In this document: one piece after another, positions 20,553 to 29,940 of the stretch
How the letters are laid out: every line of letters starts with the position of its first letter
How positions within the stretch are numbered: position 1 is the stretch's first letter
Source of the DNA: a virus
Virus record (IMG/VR): IMGVR_UViG_3300042287_000745
Span: 10,736-74,735 of that record
DNA: 64,000 nt
Direction: 5' to 3' (one strand)
The notes under the pieces: generated by a model
Databases searched by the model: none
Seen by the model: the letters and a program-made list of their open reading frames with translations, nothing else
Told to the model about the DNA's origin: nothing
Translations under genes and position numbers: made by a program

Positions 20553-21031
20553 TGGAAGATATAACATACTATAAACTATTGAAGCTTTCATCTGGAGAGA
20601 ATATTATTTGTGGGACTGAGGACAATTGTAAAAATTTTACAGAAAAAGGTATGATAAGCATATCTAATCCGGTAGTTTTAAATGTACTTAGAACTCCGAA
20701 AGGTAAAAATTTGGTAGAGACGTATATACTTATACCTTGGTTTAGTTTTGCAAATGGCAATGTATATGACATTTCTACAGATCAGATTATTACAGCTATA
20801 GATATTAAGGAATCGCTAAAATCGAATTACTTTTCATATTTAGAACAGCGAGCATTAGAAGATGAAATAGAAGATGGGTTATCAGAAGATTTTGATAATG
20901 AAGATGAGCTTCAGGAAATAGAAGAATTCCTGGAAACCTTGGGAGAAACACATGACGACGAAAATGACTACGATGGACGAGACGACACCGGTACTACAAG
21001 AAGTAGAAGAGGTACGAGAACCCTCCACTAA
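20552..21031 (+). CDS. Conserved hypothetical protein (Sm-like N-terminus, acidic tail)
   Basis: LLKLSSGENII start; usual position between uvsW and gp55. Confidence 0.65.
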   Translation: MEDITYYKLLKLSSGENIICGTEDNCKNFTEKGMISISNPVVLNVLRTPKGKNLVETYILIPWFSFANGNVYDISTDQIITAIDIKESLKSNYFSYLEQRALEDEIEDGLSEDFDNEDELQEIEEFLETLGETHDDENDYDGRDDTGTTRSRRGTRTLH

Positions 21032-21584
21032 ATCTAAAATGGATCCTGCTCATTATGTGGATAATAAAAAATTCTTAGCAGAACTACTAATATACAAAAC
21101 TGCCGTAGATGCAGCGAAGGAAGCAGGCCAAGAAATCCCACAGGTTCCGGATTATATAGGTGAATGTTTTATTAAAATTGCAACTCATCTTTCATATAAA
21201 TCTAATTTTATTAATTATACCTTTAGAGATGATATGATTTCAGATGGTATAGAAAATTGTTTAACTGCCGCAGGAAAATTTGATCCCACAAAATCATCTA
21301 ATCCTTTCGCATATTATACTCAAATTGTTTTCTTTGCGTTTATTCGTAGAATCCAAAAAGAGAAAAAACATCAAGCAACCAAATATAAAATAATTGAAAA
21401 TTTAGACTTAGATTCAATTATTCAGCAAAATGATGATAGCGAATCGGGTAGACAATTAATTGAATTTTTAAAGAAACAATTAGATACAATTGATCCAGAA
21501 AAACGGGAAACCCCATCCGAAACAAAATCTCGAAAAAAGAAGTCTGCTGAAATGGATATTCCTACTATAGACTTACTTACCTAA
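20952..21584 (+). CDS. gp55: Late-transcription sigma factor gp55
   Basis: HYVDNKKF, YIGECFIKIA, MISDGIENC and NPFAYYTQI motifs. Confidence 0.95.
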   Translation: MTTKMTTMDETTPVLQEVEEVREPSTKSKMDPAHYVDNKKFLAELLIYKTAVDAAKEAGQEIPQVPDYIGECFIKIATHLSYKSNFINYTFRDDMISDGIENCLTAAGKFDPTKSSNPFAYYTQIVFFAFIRRIQKEKKHQATKYKIIENLDLDSIIQQNDDSESGRQLIEFLKKQLDTIDPEKRETPSETKSRKKKSAEMDIPTIDLLT

Positions 21585-24192: not shown

Positions 24193-25557
24193 ATGAATAC
24201 GTATAAAAAAAGAATAGCATTTTGTCTTAGTGATCAACATACTATTCCTCACGGCGGATTAGGTCAATTCGCAAAATCCTTTATTGAAACTTTTACTCCT
24301 CTCGGATATAAGGTAGATATTATATTAGATAGACCAGCATCTAATACAGGGTTCAAAACATACTTAGAAGAACAAGGCGCAAGATTTATTTGCGCCGAAC
24401 CTATTAGCTATACAAACCATACAAAAACATTTATGTTTGAGGATTCCTTTAACTTTGAAAAGATGGTAAATTTCAGGGAATCCATGATGAAAGCACTTAA
24501 TGAAAATTTGTATGACATTATTATATGTAATACATTAGAATCATTCCCCGCAATTTATTCATTGAATCTACAAAAAAGTATACAAATAATTTATTATACC
24601 CATAATGAAAGTATGGTATTTTTAGATGATCGTGAATGGAAAAATGAATTTACGGAATCATTTAATGAAACATTTAACGCATTAATGGGCGTTAAAGGTA
24701 TTACGATTGGTACTCAGACTTTGCGAAATTTATCTGAATTACATAAGTCTAAAATACCAAATGCGAAATATTTGCCAATACTTATGACTGAGAAAACATT
24801 ACTACAAAAGCACATTAAGCCTAGAGAAGGTGTATTGTGGATCGGTCGATGGGAACCTAGGAAAAATCCAGAAGCATTTATTGAGATGATTCAACAAACA
24901 GGATTGCCTGCAAAAGTAATTACAAATGCAACAGGCGCAAAGAAGTTTGAAACTGCATTGCAAGCTATTAATGCTAAATATGAAATAAGATCAGGAATAT
25001 ATGGACAAGAAAAGGTAGACTTTTTAACGTCTGCGAGAGTAGCATACAATCCTGCGATACGAGAAAGTTTTGGATTAGCATTTTATGAAACAATAGGGCA
25101 CATGCCGACCGTTGCAATTGAGGGAATGTCCTGGTTAGGAAATTTTCCTAATACTAACTATTTTGCAGTACAGAAAAAAGTAGTACCTAAGGTAATCGTT
25201 GACCTATATGCAAAGTTTAAGAATTCTGAACTTTGGTATCAACAAGGAGTTCTAGAATCAATACGAACTTTAGATAGAAATGGTATAGAAGAATGGGAAC
25301 GGTGTTTTAATTCTTTTGAATATATTAAATCAATTTCTGAAAGAGCTAAAATTAATGAAGTCGATGTATCTACGTATAAAGATTTTATAACTTCTCTAAA
25401 TAGGAAAGCTTTGTCTATTGACGATGTTCGTTCTGTATTGACAAACAAGCATAAATTTAATATAATATACACAGATACACAAACCTATATATCTAAAGAC
25501 AAAAACTTCGTTCCAAAAGAAGAATCTGATAATTCACTAGAAAGTTTATTCGTATGA
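24193..25557 (+). CDS. GT-B glycosyltransferase (GT4-like)
   Basis: HGGLGQF, IGRWEPRKNP and ESFGLAFYE motifs. Confidence 0.85.
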   Translation: MNTYKKRIAFCLSDQHTIPHGGLGQFAKSFIETFTPLGYKVDIILDRPASNTGFKTYLEEQGARFICAEPISYTNHTKTFMFEDSFNFEKMVNFRESMMKALNENLYDIIICNTLESFPAIYSLNLQKSIQIIYYTHNESMVFLDDREWKNEFTESFNETFNALMGVKGITIGTQTLRNLSELHKSKIPNAKYLPILMTEKTLLQKHIKPREGVLWIGRWEPRKNPEAFIEMIQQTGLPAKVITNATGAKKFETALQAINAKYEIRSGIYGQEKVDFLTSARVAYNPAIRESFGLAFYETIGHMPTVAIEGMSWLGNFPNTNYFAVQKKVVPKVIVDLYAKFKNSELWYQQGVLESIRTLDRNGIEEWERCFNSFEYIKSISERAKINEVDVSTYKDFITSLNRKALSIDDVRSVLTNKHKFNIIYTDTQTYISKDKNFVPKEESDNSLESLFV

Positions 25558-26843
25558 GCCGACAATTAGAATATGTTATATCTGGACCAGCATACCTTCG
25601 GTTGGGGTCTGAGCAATGCGATGATCCTGAAACATTGCAAATGATTAATGATTTGATTCTTAAAACGGTTCATAATAAAAATAATCATCAATTTTCTCTT
25701 TTGTATAATGGATTTACAGAAAAGAACTTTGGTAAGAAATTGCAAAAATATAGACCAGCAGTTAAAAATATTCATGCGGACTCTGGTGGTTTGCAGATTG
25801 TTACTCGTGGATTGCAGAATACTCCTGAGACAAGAAACAAAGTATATGAAAATCAGGCAGCATGGGCAGATATTGGAATGGCATTTGATGAGATTCCGGT
25901 AAAATCTACTTCTGCAAGTGGCGTATCCTCAAAAATTGATACTAAACGTAGATATGTTGATATGGAAAATTTTGAGACATATGCAAGACAGACAGGTAAG
26001 AATGTTAAAGATCAAATTTTAAAATTTGATTCTGTTAAAAGTGATTGTCGTCCTTTTGTTATTATTCAGGGGTCAGGGCAAGATACGTATCAGCAGTGGA
26101 CTGAATATATGTTAGATGAAATTCCTAAAGAATTGCATCATCGTATTGGCGGTGTCGCTATGGGATCGGCTGCATTGGGTATGGGACCACTCGAAGATGT
26201 AAAGCGAGCATTTTATGTAAATGCTGTACCTTTTGAAAAACCGTTTCATCTACACGTACTAGGGGTAGGTGCATTAAAACGCATATTGCCGTATTTACTT
26301 TTTAGCCAAACTGGTCTTTATAAAGATATTGATATATCATATGATTCTACAACACATTCTATGTCATTGGATAACGGATTATTTTACTTCTCACATTGTA
26401 AAAAAGGTACACCTGGAGACTATGGTGGATCATCTGTAAAAATGGGTAGACCATATTCTAATATCTATCGGACTGTTACTAACGAAATTAATTCAGTATG
26501 TGGTACAGATTACTCCCCTGAAGAATATCATAAATTGATGAATATTTCAGTCGGTGAATATTTAGAAAAGGGTGGTAAATTTATAGATATTATGCGTGCT
26601 CGACTTTCCTTTATTTTAACAAATGTGCATAATTTTACTATGGATGTCTCAAACTTAATGAATTCTAAAGATGAATTTTTACGTTTCTGTAGAGATAAGA
26701 ATTGTGAAAATGAATATAGTACATTATTCGATGTCAAAACATCTGAGGATTTTATCTATTGGGAAAAACACGTAGGAAAATTTATGGATTCATCTCCGGT
26801 AAATATTATTGCACCATCATCTCTTGAGGACTTATTTGCATGA
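25554..26843 (+). CDS. TGT-fold guanine transglycosylase, DpdA-like (7-deazaguanine insertion into DNA)
   Basis: DSGGLQ, MAFDEIP, IIQG, IGG, HVLGVG and YDST correspond in order to TGT catalytic motifs; no CxCxxC Zn site; lies among que genes. Confidence 0.75.
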   Translation: MSRQLEYVISGPAYLRLGSEQCDDPETLQMINDLILKTVHNKNNHQFSLLYNGFTEKNFGKKLQKYRPAVKNIHADSGGLQIVTRGLQNTPETRNKVYENQAAWADIGMAFDEIPVKSTSASGVSSKIDTKRRYVDMENFETYARQTGKNVKDQILKFDSVKSDCRPFVIIQGSGQDTYQQWTEYMLDEIPKELHHRIGGVAMGSAALGMGPLEDVKRAFYVNAVPFEKPFHLHVLGVGALKRILPYLLFSQTGLYKDIDISYDSTTHSMSLDNGLFYFSHCKKGTPGDYGGSSVKMGRPYSNIYRTVTNEINSVCGTDYSPEEYHKLMNISVGEYLEKGGKFIDIMRARLSFILTNVHNFTMDVSNLMNSKDEFLRFCRDKNCENEYSTLFDVKTSEDFIYWEKHVGKFMDSSPVNIIAPSSLEDLFA

Positions 26844-27259
26844 ATTTTGCTAGCTCAATTATTAATACATCTGACATAATTATGAAACAAACAAGTTATA
26901 TTTGGGTAACATTCCAAAAAGAGGGTATCCACAAATATCCTGCTGCGGCAACGGATCCTAAATTAGCAACAGGCGATTGGCTCGATGTTAGTTTCTTAAG
27001 TACACCACATCGGCATATATTTCATTTCAGAGTTGAGATGCAGGTATTCCATGATGATCGAGATGTAGAATTTATACAAGCAAAACGAATAATGGAACGA
27101 TGGTATTCTGATGGCACATTGCAGTTAGATTATAAATCTTGCGAAATGATGGCTAGAGAGCTATATGGTCGCCTAAATACTATGTGGCCTAATAGAAATT
27201 ATGTTATTGAAGTATCTGAAGATAACGAAAACGGTTGTAAACTATATTTTGGAGAGTAA
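26840..27259 (+). CDS. QueD-like T-fold paralog (possible DpdL-type enzyme)
   Basis: EGIH, PHRHIFHFRV, DRDVEF, SCEMMA and EVSED motifs resemble the PTPS/QueD fold. Confidence 0.6.
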   Translation: MNFASSIINTSDIIMKQTSYIWVTFQKEGIHKYPAAATDPKLATGDWLDVSFLSTPHRHIFHFRVEMQVFHDDRDVEFIQAKRIMERWYSDGTLQLDYKSCEMMARELYGRLNTMWPNRNYVIEVSEDNENGCKLYFGE

Positions 27260-28438: not shown

Positions 28439-29413
28439 ATGACTAAGACTGTTATAGTTACAGGCGCCGCCGGTTATATCGGTGGCGCTATTTGCATAGA
28501 ACTTATTACCAAAGGGTATTATGTAATCGGTATTGATCGCCGAGCATTACCTTCGCATTTGGAAATATATTGCGATGAATTTATCCAATCTGATTTTATT
28601 GGTTATGCATCATTAATGCAAGTAGAAAAACAACCATGTGCAATTATACATTGTGCGGGTACAAGTTTAGTTGGACCTAGTATACAAAACCCCGAAGAAT
28701 ATTATGAAAACAATATTCAGAAAACTTTAGAATATCTAAAATATATTCGCAAACGTTCTGCAAATACCAAATTTATTTTTAGTAGCAGCGCCTCTGTGTA
28801 TGGGAATCCTAATACAGATGTACCAATAACAGAAGAACAACCAACTAATCCTATTTCACCTTACGGTGAATCTAAGTTAATGATTGACCGGGCTTTGCAT
28901 TCTTTTAATATCGCATATGGTATGCAATATGTTTCTTTTAGATATTTTAATGCATGCGGAGCAATTGAGAACAGTATACATGGGCAGGAGGCAAACGCTT
29001 CACATATTTTTCCTAGAGTGTTTGAAGCAATTTTAGAAAATCTCCCATTTACATTAAACGGAAATGATTATAATACTAAAGATGGGACCTGTGTTAGAGA
29101 TTATGTTCACGTATCAGATATTGCTAGCGCACATGTAATGGCAATAGAAAAAAATATACAAGGAATATATAATATAGGATCTATCAGAGGTTACTCTAAT
29201 CTGGAGATCATCAAAGAAGTATCTAAATGTTTAGGTAAAAACTTATCTATTGAAATTGCAGATAAGCGTATAGGTGACCCTGCATATCTAATTGCAGATT
29301 CTAATAAATTATTTTTAGATGCGGGTTGGACAGCAAAAAAAGATTTACGTACTATTATTAAAGATTTACATGACTGGTACTTCCCAGAGGCCTCCGGCGC
29401 TCATCCCTCTTAA
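28439..29413 (+). CDS. galE: UDP-glucose 4-epimerase (GalE-like extended SDR)
   Basis: TGAAGYIG, FSSSASVYG, YGESK, RYFNACG and DGTCVRDYVHV motifs. Confidence 0.85.
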   Translation: MTKTVIVTGAAGYIGGAICIELITKGYYVIGIDRRALPSHLEIYCDEFIQSDFIGYASLMQVEKQPCAIIHCAGTSLVGPSIQNPEEYYENNIQKTLEYLKYIRKRSANTKFIFSSSASVYGNPNTDVPITEEQPTNPISPYGESKLMIDRALHSFNIAYGMQYVSFRYFNACGAIENSIHGQEANASHIFPRVFEAILENLPFTLNGNDYNTKDGTCVRDYVHVSDIASAHVMAIEKNIQGIYNIGSIRGYSNLEIIKEVSKCLGKNLSIEIADKRIGDPAYLIADSNKLFLDAGWTAKKDLRTIIKDLHDWYFPEASGAHPS

Positions 29414-29448
29414 AATATTCTGCGTGTCTTCTTTTAAATATGGAGACA
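29386..29448 (+). promoter_or_regulatory. Candidate preQ1-I-like riboswitch plus SD-sequestering hairpin upstream of queD
   Basis: AGAGG/CCTCT P1 stem, loop ending CATC, A-rich linker, CGG/CTG pseudoknot; TGTCTTC/GGAGACA hairpin covers the queD RBS. Confidence 0.55.
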
Positions 29449-29454
29449 AATAAA

Positions 29455-29940
29455 ATGACAAACAAAAAATTCTTTTCTACAAAAACATACAGACAAATCG
29501 GGCCAGTTGCTTACCGGCAATGGCGCGCCGATTCTCATTGCAATTTAATTCATGGTTATGCTATGAGTTTTCACTTTGAATTTGAAGCAGATACGTTAGA
29601 TGCTCGCAATTGGGTTACTGACTTCGGAGGACTAAGACCACTTAAGGATAGTCTAGAAGAGTGGTTCGACCATACTTTACTTGTCGCTGAAGACGATCCT
29701 ATGCGAGACGAACTACTGCACTTAGGTAAAATTGGCCTGGCTAAAATTACAGAAGTAGAACGAACCGGTTGCGAAGGCATTGCTGATTTTCTATATGAAT
29801 ATATTAACACTATCTTTTTACCTAATTGCGGCGCAGAAGAAGCAAAACGGGTCTGGTGCTGCCGGGTAGAGGTCCGGGAAACAGATTCTAATATGGCTGG
29901 CAGAAACGGTCACCGAGAAGATAATGAATTTATGGCATAA
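29455..29940 (+). CDS. queD: 6-carboxy-5,6,7,8-tetrahydropterin synthase QueD
   Basis: HCNLIHGY, WVTDFGGL, FDHTLL, GCE and VEVRET motifs; GGAG at 29442-45 favours the ATG at 29455. Confidence 0.88.
   Translation: MTNKKFFSTKTYRQIGPVAYRQWRADSHCNLIHGYAMSFHFEFEADTLDARNWVTDFGGLRPLKDSLEEWFDHTLLVAEDDPMRDELLHLGKIGLAKITEVERTGCEGIADFLYEYINTIFLPNCGAEEAKRVWCCRVEVRETDSNMAGRNGHREDNEFMA

Follow-up and report, generated by a model that had tools for sequence, protein, structure and literature searches.

A covarying pseudoknot with a helix masking the ribosome-binding site in the leaders of phage queD-like genes, a candidate for a new riboswitch class

The class I preQ1 riboswitch (preQ1-I, Rfam family RF00522) is a 34-nt RNA in which a small hairpin and a 12-nt adenine-rich tail condense into a pseudoknot (PMC3273816). 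A leader RNA with the same topology, which is nevertheless not a member of preQ1-I, lies in the phage DNA studied here, a stretch of 64,000 nt (the window) from the IMG/VR virus record IMGVR_UViG_3300042287_000745. Its positions 29386-29448 are one copy of a previously undescribed, phage-specific element made of an H-type pseudoknot of about 43 nt and a helix that masks the ribosome-binding site (RBS) of a queD-like gene, and there is little doubt in our minds that this element is a genuine structured cis-regulatory RNA. At the QueD step dihydroneopterin triphosphate is drawn off from the folate branch; the FolE-QueD-QueE route leads from GTP to 7-carboxy-7-deazaguanine (CDG), and the 7-deazaguanine pathway is used for anti-restriction DNA modification. 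To our knowledge, phages seldom carry riboswitches, and the known examples are copies of bacterial classes.

Like preQ1-I, the element is an H-type pseudoknot on a 5-bp stem (P1) whose 3′ tail pairs back into the hairpin loop; it has a conserved C directly before the P1 3′ strand and an A-rich loop (L3), and it lies upstream of a gene of the GTP-to-7-deazaguanine pathway, with control predicted here at translation initiation. Part of this is read directly in the window, where AGAGG (29386-29390) and CCTCT (29406-29410) make the strands of P1, C29405 directly precedes the P1 3′ strand, and an A-rich stretch (TAAAATATTC) occupies 29411-29420, directly 3′ of P1. The parts of the element, ending with the hairpin over the queD Shine-Dalgarno sequence (SD), are as follows.

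29386-29390, plus strand: 5′ strand of P1 (AGAGG), pairing with 29406-29410.
29391-29395, plus strand: L1 (CCUCC), a variable first base, a conserved C-U and then variable bases.
29396-29400, plus strand: 5′ strand of P2a (GGCGC), pairing with GUGUC at 29424-29428 by three G-C/C-G and two G·U pairs.
29401, plus strand: conserved U of a U•C mismatch, opposite C29423 and between P2a and P2b.
29402-29403, plus strand: 5′ strand of P2b (CA), assigned by covariation.
29404-29405, plus strand: L2 (UC), the first base being U, C or A in the family and the C abutting the P1 3′ strand.
29406-29410, plus strand: 3′ strand of P1 (CCUCU), pairing with AGAGG.
29411-29420, plus strand: L3 (UAAAAUAUUC), consensus W-U-A-H-A-W-A-Y-U-C, its first three bases being the galE stop codon.
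29421-29422, plus strand: 3′ strand of P2b (UG), assigned by covariation.
29423, plus strand: conserved C of the U•C mismatch, assigned by conservation.
29424-29428, plus strand: 3′ strand of P2a (GUGUC), of which 29425-29428 are common to the SD-masking strand.
29425-29448, plus strand: RBS-masking hairpin, with UGUCUUC at 29425-29431, a loop at 29432-29441 and GGAGACA at 29442-29448 (SD = GGAG, 29442-29445).

The case for this structure is comparative, since the single-sequence fold of the window element has no significance of its own (z = -1.15); the minimum-free-energy fold favours a competing local hairpin over P1, and the hairpin over the SD does form. Relatives were aligned in pattern-derived sets (A1/A2) and in an unbiased, protein-anchored set (A4), with 55-122 distinct sequences. 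The DNA pattern run over IMG/VR consisted of L2, the P1 3′ strand (two bases N) and L3 only, and thus fixed L2 and L3 and left the P1 5′ strand outside the search. The resulting family consensus is P1 / L1 N-C-U(+n) / P2a / (n)U / C-R / L2 H-C / P1′ / L3 W-U-A-H-A-W-A-Y-U-C / Y-G / C / P2a′. P1 takes the form ANNGG/CCNNU, in the types AGCGG/CCGCU, ACCGG/CCGGU, AGAGG/CCUCU (that of the window), AGUGG/CCACU and AUCGG/CCGAU; it is perfect in 181 of 190 instances and paired at 98.6-98.9% in A1/A2 and 99.6% in A4, with double-sided compensatory changes at 2-3 pairs. The covariation score of the whole structure is 0.276 in A1/A2, against 0.097±0.008 for shuffles (none of 500 reaching it) and at most 0.09 for slid registers, and 0.188 in A4, against 0.074±0.008 (0/500) and at most 0.077.

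The second stem is composite. In one part of it, P2a, the bases after a conserved CUGC are complementary to the loop's 3′ half, through pairs as different as GGCG/CGCC, GGCU/AGCC, GGUG/CACC, GAAC/GUUC, GGAA/UUCC, GACAA/UUGUC, GACGC/GUGUC and ACGAC/GUCGU, and GCAGC/GCUGC in the divergent copy L442. With one representative taken per distinct 3′ partner, true partners pair at -4.41 kcal/mol and shuffled ones at -3.23±0.27, no shuffle of 1000 being as low; this energy test supersedes an earlier, unanchored one, which was dominated by near-identical sequences and gave a small effect only. Double-sided changes occur at six of the seven P2a pairs (A1/A2). In P2b, the ‘CA’ before L2 pairs with the ‘UG’ of UCUGC (A29403-U29421 and C29402-G29422 in the window). 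Its first pair is C-G in 55 of 55 A4 rows, and its second, R-Y, is A-U in 50 and G-C in 5 of them; over 103 unique protein-anchored instances the latter count becomes 94 A-U, 9 G-C and no mixed case, the G-C cases being spread over four types of P1, different platforms and at least five sequence backgrounds.

A first-pass annotation, made from the window sequence, had already recognised the P1 stem, the C before its 3′ strand with the A-rich tail, and the TGTCTTC/GGAGACA hairpin over the queD SD, and had named conservation and covariation in related phages as a check; all of these are borne out. The pseudoknot it drew between a loop CGG and a tail CUG was in the wrong register: covariation supports U29421-G29422 with A29403-C29402, and GGCGC 29396-29400 with GUGUC 29424-29428.

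Several unpaired positions are conserved too. The U of the U•C mismatch, whose position is derived from the P2a and P2b registers, is invariant where the alignment is not pattern-forced; C9 and U10 of L1 (numbering of A1) are at least 90% conserved, three A positions of L3 are invariant, and the L2 C next to P1 is kept in all instances seen except one. In that sole copy (L404:335-386) it is a U (UCACU), which could make L404 a specificity variant if the L2 C pairs with a ligand, in analogy to guanine and adenine riboswitches, or else an error or a decaying copy. All conserved features of the family are kept in the window copy, which scores 48 bits (E = 2e-10) with the family model, being in its seed by construction. 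Four other pairings or readings were rejected: an inner hairpin in the P1 loop (GNC...GN′C, ‘P1b’), as it fails for many loops and pairing of P2a with the tail explains the covariation better; a helix between the P1 5′ strand and the conserved CUGC, which is possible for AGCGG variants only and shows no covariation with the remaining P1 types; a pairing of L2 UCAUC to the region of the start codon, likewise without covariation; and an upstream reading frame in type B leaders (AUG inside P2a), whose frame and stop are not conserved.

Two genes flank the element in the window.

28439-29413, plus strand: galE, encoding GalE, a UDP-glucose 4-epimerase (TIGR01179, 286.9 bits, above the 262.3 cut-off).
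29455-29940, plus strand: QueD-like gene of the 6-pyruvoyl-tetrahydropterin-synthase fold (PF01242, E=7e-16; phrog_2389, E=4e-41), with its ATG at 29455.

The last 28 nt of galE are the 5′ part of the aptamer, so that the C-terminus ...PEASGAHPS (the last 8-9 codons) is read from it, much as first proposed for EASGAHPS, and the TAA at 29411-29413 is the first triplet of L3; the L011 clade has the same arrangement. galE is 13% divergent from the nearest clade, and 16% over its last 300 nt, whereas the 43-nt aptamer has two differences (29394-29395, both in the variable part of L1) and the platform also two, both within the hairpin loop. This low divergence argues that the RNA is under selection even where it doubles as coding sequence. 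In these clades ribosomes terminating at the galE stop would melt P1, P2 and probably the masking hairpin, which would couple translation of the two genes.

More than 190 phage contigs of IMG/VR have the element upstream of a QueD-like (phrog_2389) gene, its bearers being freshwater and lake phages with hundreds of contigs. With the window's QueD protein as query, 344 relatives were obtained and 80 kept as loci; in nearly all of 77 close relatives the motif is directly upstream of the QueD-like gene, regardless of the gene before it, and galE adjoins queD only in the window's clade (the five closest contigs). In the pattern scan, the downstream open reading frame (ORF) belongs to one QueD/PTPS family in 113 of 116 cases among the matches listed. 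As to individual contigs, L148:6412-6829 (the contig of L019) has a 113-amino-acid cupin gene between motif and queD, and in L158:4432-5160 and L191:4955-5800 the ORF right after the motif encodes proteins of 243 and 282 amino acids, respectively, which are not QueD-like. A set anchored on a different QueD-like protein has the element in 74 of 80 loci, and at five of the six others there is no upstream sequence; a set spanning 100-39% identity has it in 26 of 66, plus the divergent copies L392/394/395, L397 and L442; most homologs below about 60% identity are without it and closely coupled to another upstream gene instead. There is exactly one copy in the window's contig and in each of five large carrier genomes (229-382 kb, those of L012, L116, L119, L144 and L163).

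Outside phages, 185,579 cellular species genomes gave 74 pattern matches and only two true copies, both in the promoter-motif-queD arrangement and both on 5-6 kb contigs of metagenome-assembled genomes (MAGs), a Crocinitomicaceae MAG (L266, 6.3 kb) and a Bacteroidetes MAG (L231, 5.5 kb). Most likely these are binned phage DNA, and their binning with Bacteroidota is a weak hint at the host group. Cellular matches of the Idiomarina type were discarded, as their P1 is unpaired and the site lies within a conserved coding region. Among cultured phages (50,697 records), blastn with the galE-queD region and a type A leader returned distant queD coding matches only and no leader. Among public sequencing runs, none of RNA was listed as containing the locus. 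Full-text searches of the published literature found no description of the motif, and the main papers on phage 7-deazaguanine do not mention riboswitches.

How the element might act is suggested by what follows the pseudoknot. In the minimum-free-energy fold TGTCTTC 29425-29431 pairs with GGAGACA 29442-29448 across the queD SD, and SD-masking hairpins recur in relatives with unrelated sequences. Four designs of RBS-masking helix are predicted.

Window type: helix UGUCUUC/GGAGACA masks the SD and shares UGUC with the P2a 3′ strand.
Type A: helix CCUAUG/CAUAGG masks the SD and shares CC with the P2a 3′ strand.
Type B: helix UGUCGUC/GAUGGCA masks the start codon and shares almost all of P2a′.
L442: helix AUGUGGUCUC/GGAGGCCACAU masks SD and AUG, not through P2a′: the masking arm is here the aptamer's own 5′ half.

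The P2a 3′ strand overlaps the masking strand by at least 2 nt in 156 of 185 unique leaders (84%), and, because they share nucleotides, pseudoknot and masking helix exclude each other; over the 185 leaders their median predicted stabilities are similar, -5.2 and -5.9 kcal/mol. All four designs follow one predicted logic, a folded pseudoknot leaving the RBS free. The leader has two general marks of a riboswitch, a covarying structured aptamer in a 5′ leader and a mutually exclusive expression platform, and probably acts as a two-state translational switch for QueD: with the pseudoknot folded, SD and AUG would be exposed, and with it unfolded, they would be paired. Going by the structure, an effector that stabilises the pseudoknot would activate translation, and if that effector is a small molecule, as in a riboswitch, QueD synthesis would be turned ON. 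The architecture suggests a ligand-stabilised ON switch of this kind and not classic feedback OFF control, and it argues against the simple repression of the phage's own pathway by its product that the first-pass annotation had put forward.

The two states could also be balanced without any ligand, the structure serving as a folding timer, a thermosensor, a translation enhancer or a 5′ structure that stabilises the mRNA. In many copies promoter positions place the element at the very 5′ end of the transcript (a consensus sigma-70 promoter ends 6-12 nt before P1 in many type B/C copies, with a 12/12 match in L163), folding of the pseudoknot would precede transcription of the RBS, and the two states are similar in energy. 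A generic structural need, however, would hardly keep the unpaired bases of L1, L2 and L3 and the U•C mismatch invariant across very divergent phages, and a masking helix kept in four designs implies a regulated choice; we judge ligand independence improbable.

A second possibility is that the element is a genuine, though divergent, preQ1-I riboswitch, which would bind preQ1 or preQ0 and repress queD by product feedback. The shared layout (5-bp P1, abutting C, A-rich L3, tail into loop) and the position before a queuosine/deazaguanine-pathway gene speak for it, and were the grounds on which the first-pass annotation had named a preQ1-class-I-like riboswitch; what stands of that name is the topology, a conserved pseudoknot upstream of queD, and what falls is the family membership. 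In searches with all 4227 families of Rfam 15, the window matches no family at gathering score (39 bits for PreQ1), and a permissive scan of 29300-29520 gave two chance miRNA matches and no PreQ1 at E<=10, so that the search proposed at the outset misses the element. Run over the 74.7-kb virus record, the PreQ1 model does not list the element; it gives three unrelated sites at 12-17 bits (G000:C1 62741-62769, 22496-22528 and 41575-41605), each an A-rich run with CUA, which at such scores, against 39 bits, are chance matches and not riboswitches. Seven loci with other variants of the element have no Rfam match either, including to preQ1-II (RF01054) and preQ1-III (RF02680).

The differences from preQ1-I extend to the architecture. 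From P1 to the last base of P2a the element measures about 43 nt, not 34; its tail is a 10-nt L3 with an invariant YUC end, followed by UG, C and 4-7 nt, and this tail, WUAHAWAYUCUGC, differs from the Rfam PreQ1 consensus tail AUAAAAAACUAAGG / AUAAAAAACUA; its P2 is composite (P2a, U•C mismatch, P2b); and it occurs in phages only. In preQ1-I the pseudoknot, once ligand is bound, hides the SD or promotes a terminator (OFF), whereas the P2 of the element does not contain the SD and competes with the anti-RBS strand, with ON as the predicted polarity. QueC, whose absence from the window had been noted at first sight, was not found in the window's contig, nor clearly in the five large carriers, which therefore would not synthesise preQ0 or preQ1 of their own. 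A disguised preQ1-I riboswitch is accordingly quite improbable.

The ligand-stabilised switch leaves the question of the ligand. Upstream of queD the window encodes QueE-like, PRTase-like, FolE, DEDD exonuclease-like and 429-amino-acid weakly Tgt-like proteins, glycosyltransferases and GalE; FolE and QueE-like genes occur there and in all five large carriers (54-69% identity), which also encode QueD-like proteins, and among the pathway genes the queD-like gene alone carries the motif. Given this pathway context, a layout like that of preQ1-I and the conserved C beside P1, the most plausible candidate ligand would have a guanine-like edge, the L2 C perhaps being the counterpart of the ligand-pairing C of preQ1-I; an intermediate of the 7-deazaguanine or pterin pathway (dihydroneopterin triphosphate, CDG, preQ0) or guanine itself could serve. 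That the element binds a metabolite at all appears to us evenly balanced.

Some neighbouring genes may be recorded here. The 429-amino-acid protein of window positions 25554-26843 has weak Tgt similarity (TIGR00430, E=1e-4) and matches phrog_10773, and the sole match of the 139-amino-acid protein of 26840-27259 is phrog_17812; with nothing beyond these, the labels DpdA and DpdL for the two are unproven. The five large carriers have no Pfam TGT match and no homolog of the window's Tgt-like protein. A sigma-70/ECF-like ORF (20952-21584; TIGR02937, E=2e-7, below cut-off) lies just upstream of the queE-folE operon of the window, and in several type A carriers (L123:863-2896, L096:2685-4688) queD is followed by a glycosyltransferase-like gene and one for a 670-amino-acid B12-binding radical SAM protein.

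Instead of a metabolite, the pseudoknot could bind a protein, as an operator for autogenous control or for a phage translational regulator. Leader pseudoknots bound by proteins are established in phages and bacteria, among them that of rpsO/S15, which alternates with a double hairpin (PMC3985624); the invariant single-stranded L3 could be the recognition site, and a phage-restricted motif that occurs once per genome, before a single gene, would suit an operator. Yet there is no co-varying candidate protein, the neighbouring genes differing among carriers; the conserved bases cluster at the P1/P2 junction, as they do in small-molecule pockets; and a stabilised pseudoknot would turn translation up, whereas most operators of this kind repress. 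We regard a protein operator as doubtful.

Taken whole, the best explanation is that a leader pseudoknot and a masking helix form a translational switch, stabilised by a small molecule, that turns QueD ON, and we hold it about as much as we question it. Several facts weigh against it. The conservation of L2 and L3 rests on the protein-anchored sets, since the pattern scan forced both; P2a is paired at only 63-72% in fixed-register alignments, in part from alignment slippage; and the window aptamer, lying partly inside galE, would be disturbed by translating ribosomes. The product of the window's queD scores 35 bits with the NCBIfam QueD model, against a cut-off of 89, for which reason its exact QueD-like reaction is not certain, and the genes found next to it in other carriers do not belong to deazaguanine synthesis. 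For a biosynthetic gene ON polarity is unusual, with no obvious activating metabolite established. Finally, in type A copies L3 and the spacer also read as a sigma-70-like promoter, TTTACA-N17-TGnTATAAT, with its -10 box in the loop of the masking hairpin.

This last point raises the possibility of a DNA-level module, a terminator of the upstream gene joined to a queD promoter, with no RNA switch at all. Such promoters, of sigma-70/T4-early-like form with TTTACA (or TATACA/TTGACA)-N17-TGnTATAAT, are seen at L104:7007-7035 (minus strand) and at most type A loci (such as L009 and L102), where the upstream gene stops 4-10 nt before P1; loop variants of type A retain TAnnnT, the C in L3 (ACAAA) is specific to type A, and a few U follow P1. 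But a search for terminator-like sites gave none at the motif in the window, L163 or L104, and P1, with a loop of 15-19 nt and then at most three U, is unlike the short loop and U-tract of an intrinsic terminator. Types B and C, including the window, have no internal promoter, their promoters lying upstream of P1; G·U pairs are tolerated on the sense strand; and the covariation of P2a and P2b links both sides of the supposed -35 box. Because that covariation spans it, the internal promoter of type A cannot replace the RNA reading, and the DNA-level module, largely refuted, is very improbable. Since transcripts from the internal promoter would lack both aptamer and masking strand, type A phages may combine regulated and unregulated expression of queD.

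We thus see the element as a possible new riboswitch class with predicted ON polarity, at or a little short of an even bet, and, somewhat more tentatively, as a phage-only class whose pseudoknot aptamer would sense a metabolite of the GTP-to-7-deazaguanine route, purine- or pterin-like, and switch ON the committed enzyme QueD. If so, the phage would tune the diversion of the host's dihydroneopterin-triphosphate pool through direct sensing by RNA, and the element would reveal how entry into the 7-deazaguanine pathway is controlled in phages. Abundance, clean covariation, an identifiable platform and association with a single gene make it a strong orphan-riboswitch candidate, directly testable with a few ligands that are on the market. 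It would provide an ON-type pseudoknot aptamer for comparison with preQ1-I and, at about 45 nt, a very small natural switch for engineering; were its effector a protein, it would still be a new conserved translational operator of phages.

Other described systems resemble the element in one respect or another. Small pseudoknots gating the RBS, as is predicted here, are found in preQ1-II, preQ1-III, SAM-II/SAM-V and guanidine-III, which have other consensuses and sizes and mostly hold the SD inside the pseudoknot; the element has no Rfam match to any of them. The leaders of T4 gene 32 mRNA, a precedent in phages, and of E. coli rpsO/S15 likewise oppose a pseudoknot to an alternative hairpin in the control of translation, but they bind their own encoded protein and repress, whereas the pseudoknot of the element would expose the RBS. 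With THF-I and THF-II (the folE motif) it shares the place of a cis-regulatory RNA upstream of a pterin-pathway gene; these bacterial riboswitches recognise a pterin with a guanine-like edge, and THF-II is a hairpin, whereas the element has a different fold and matches neither in Rfam.

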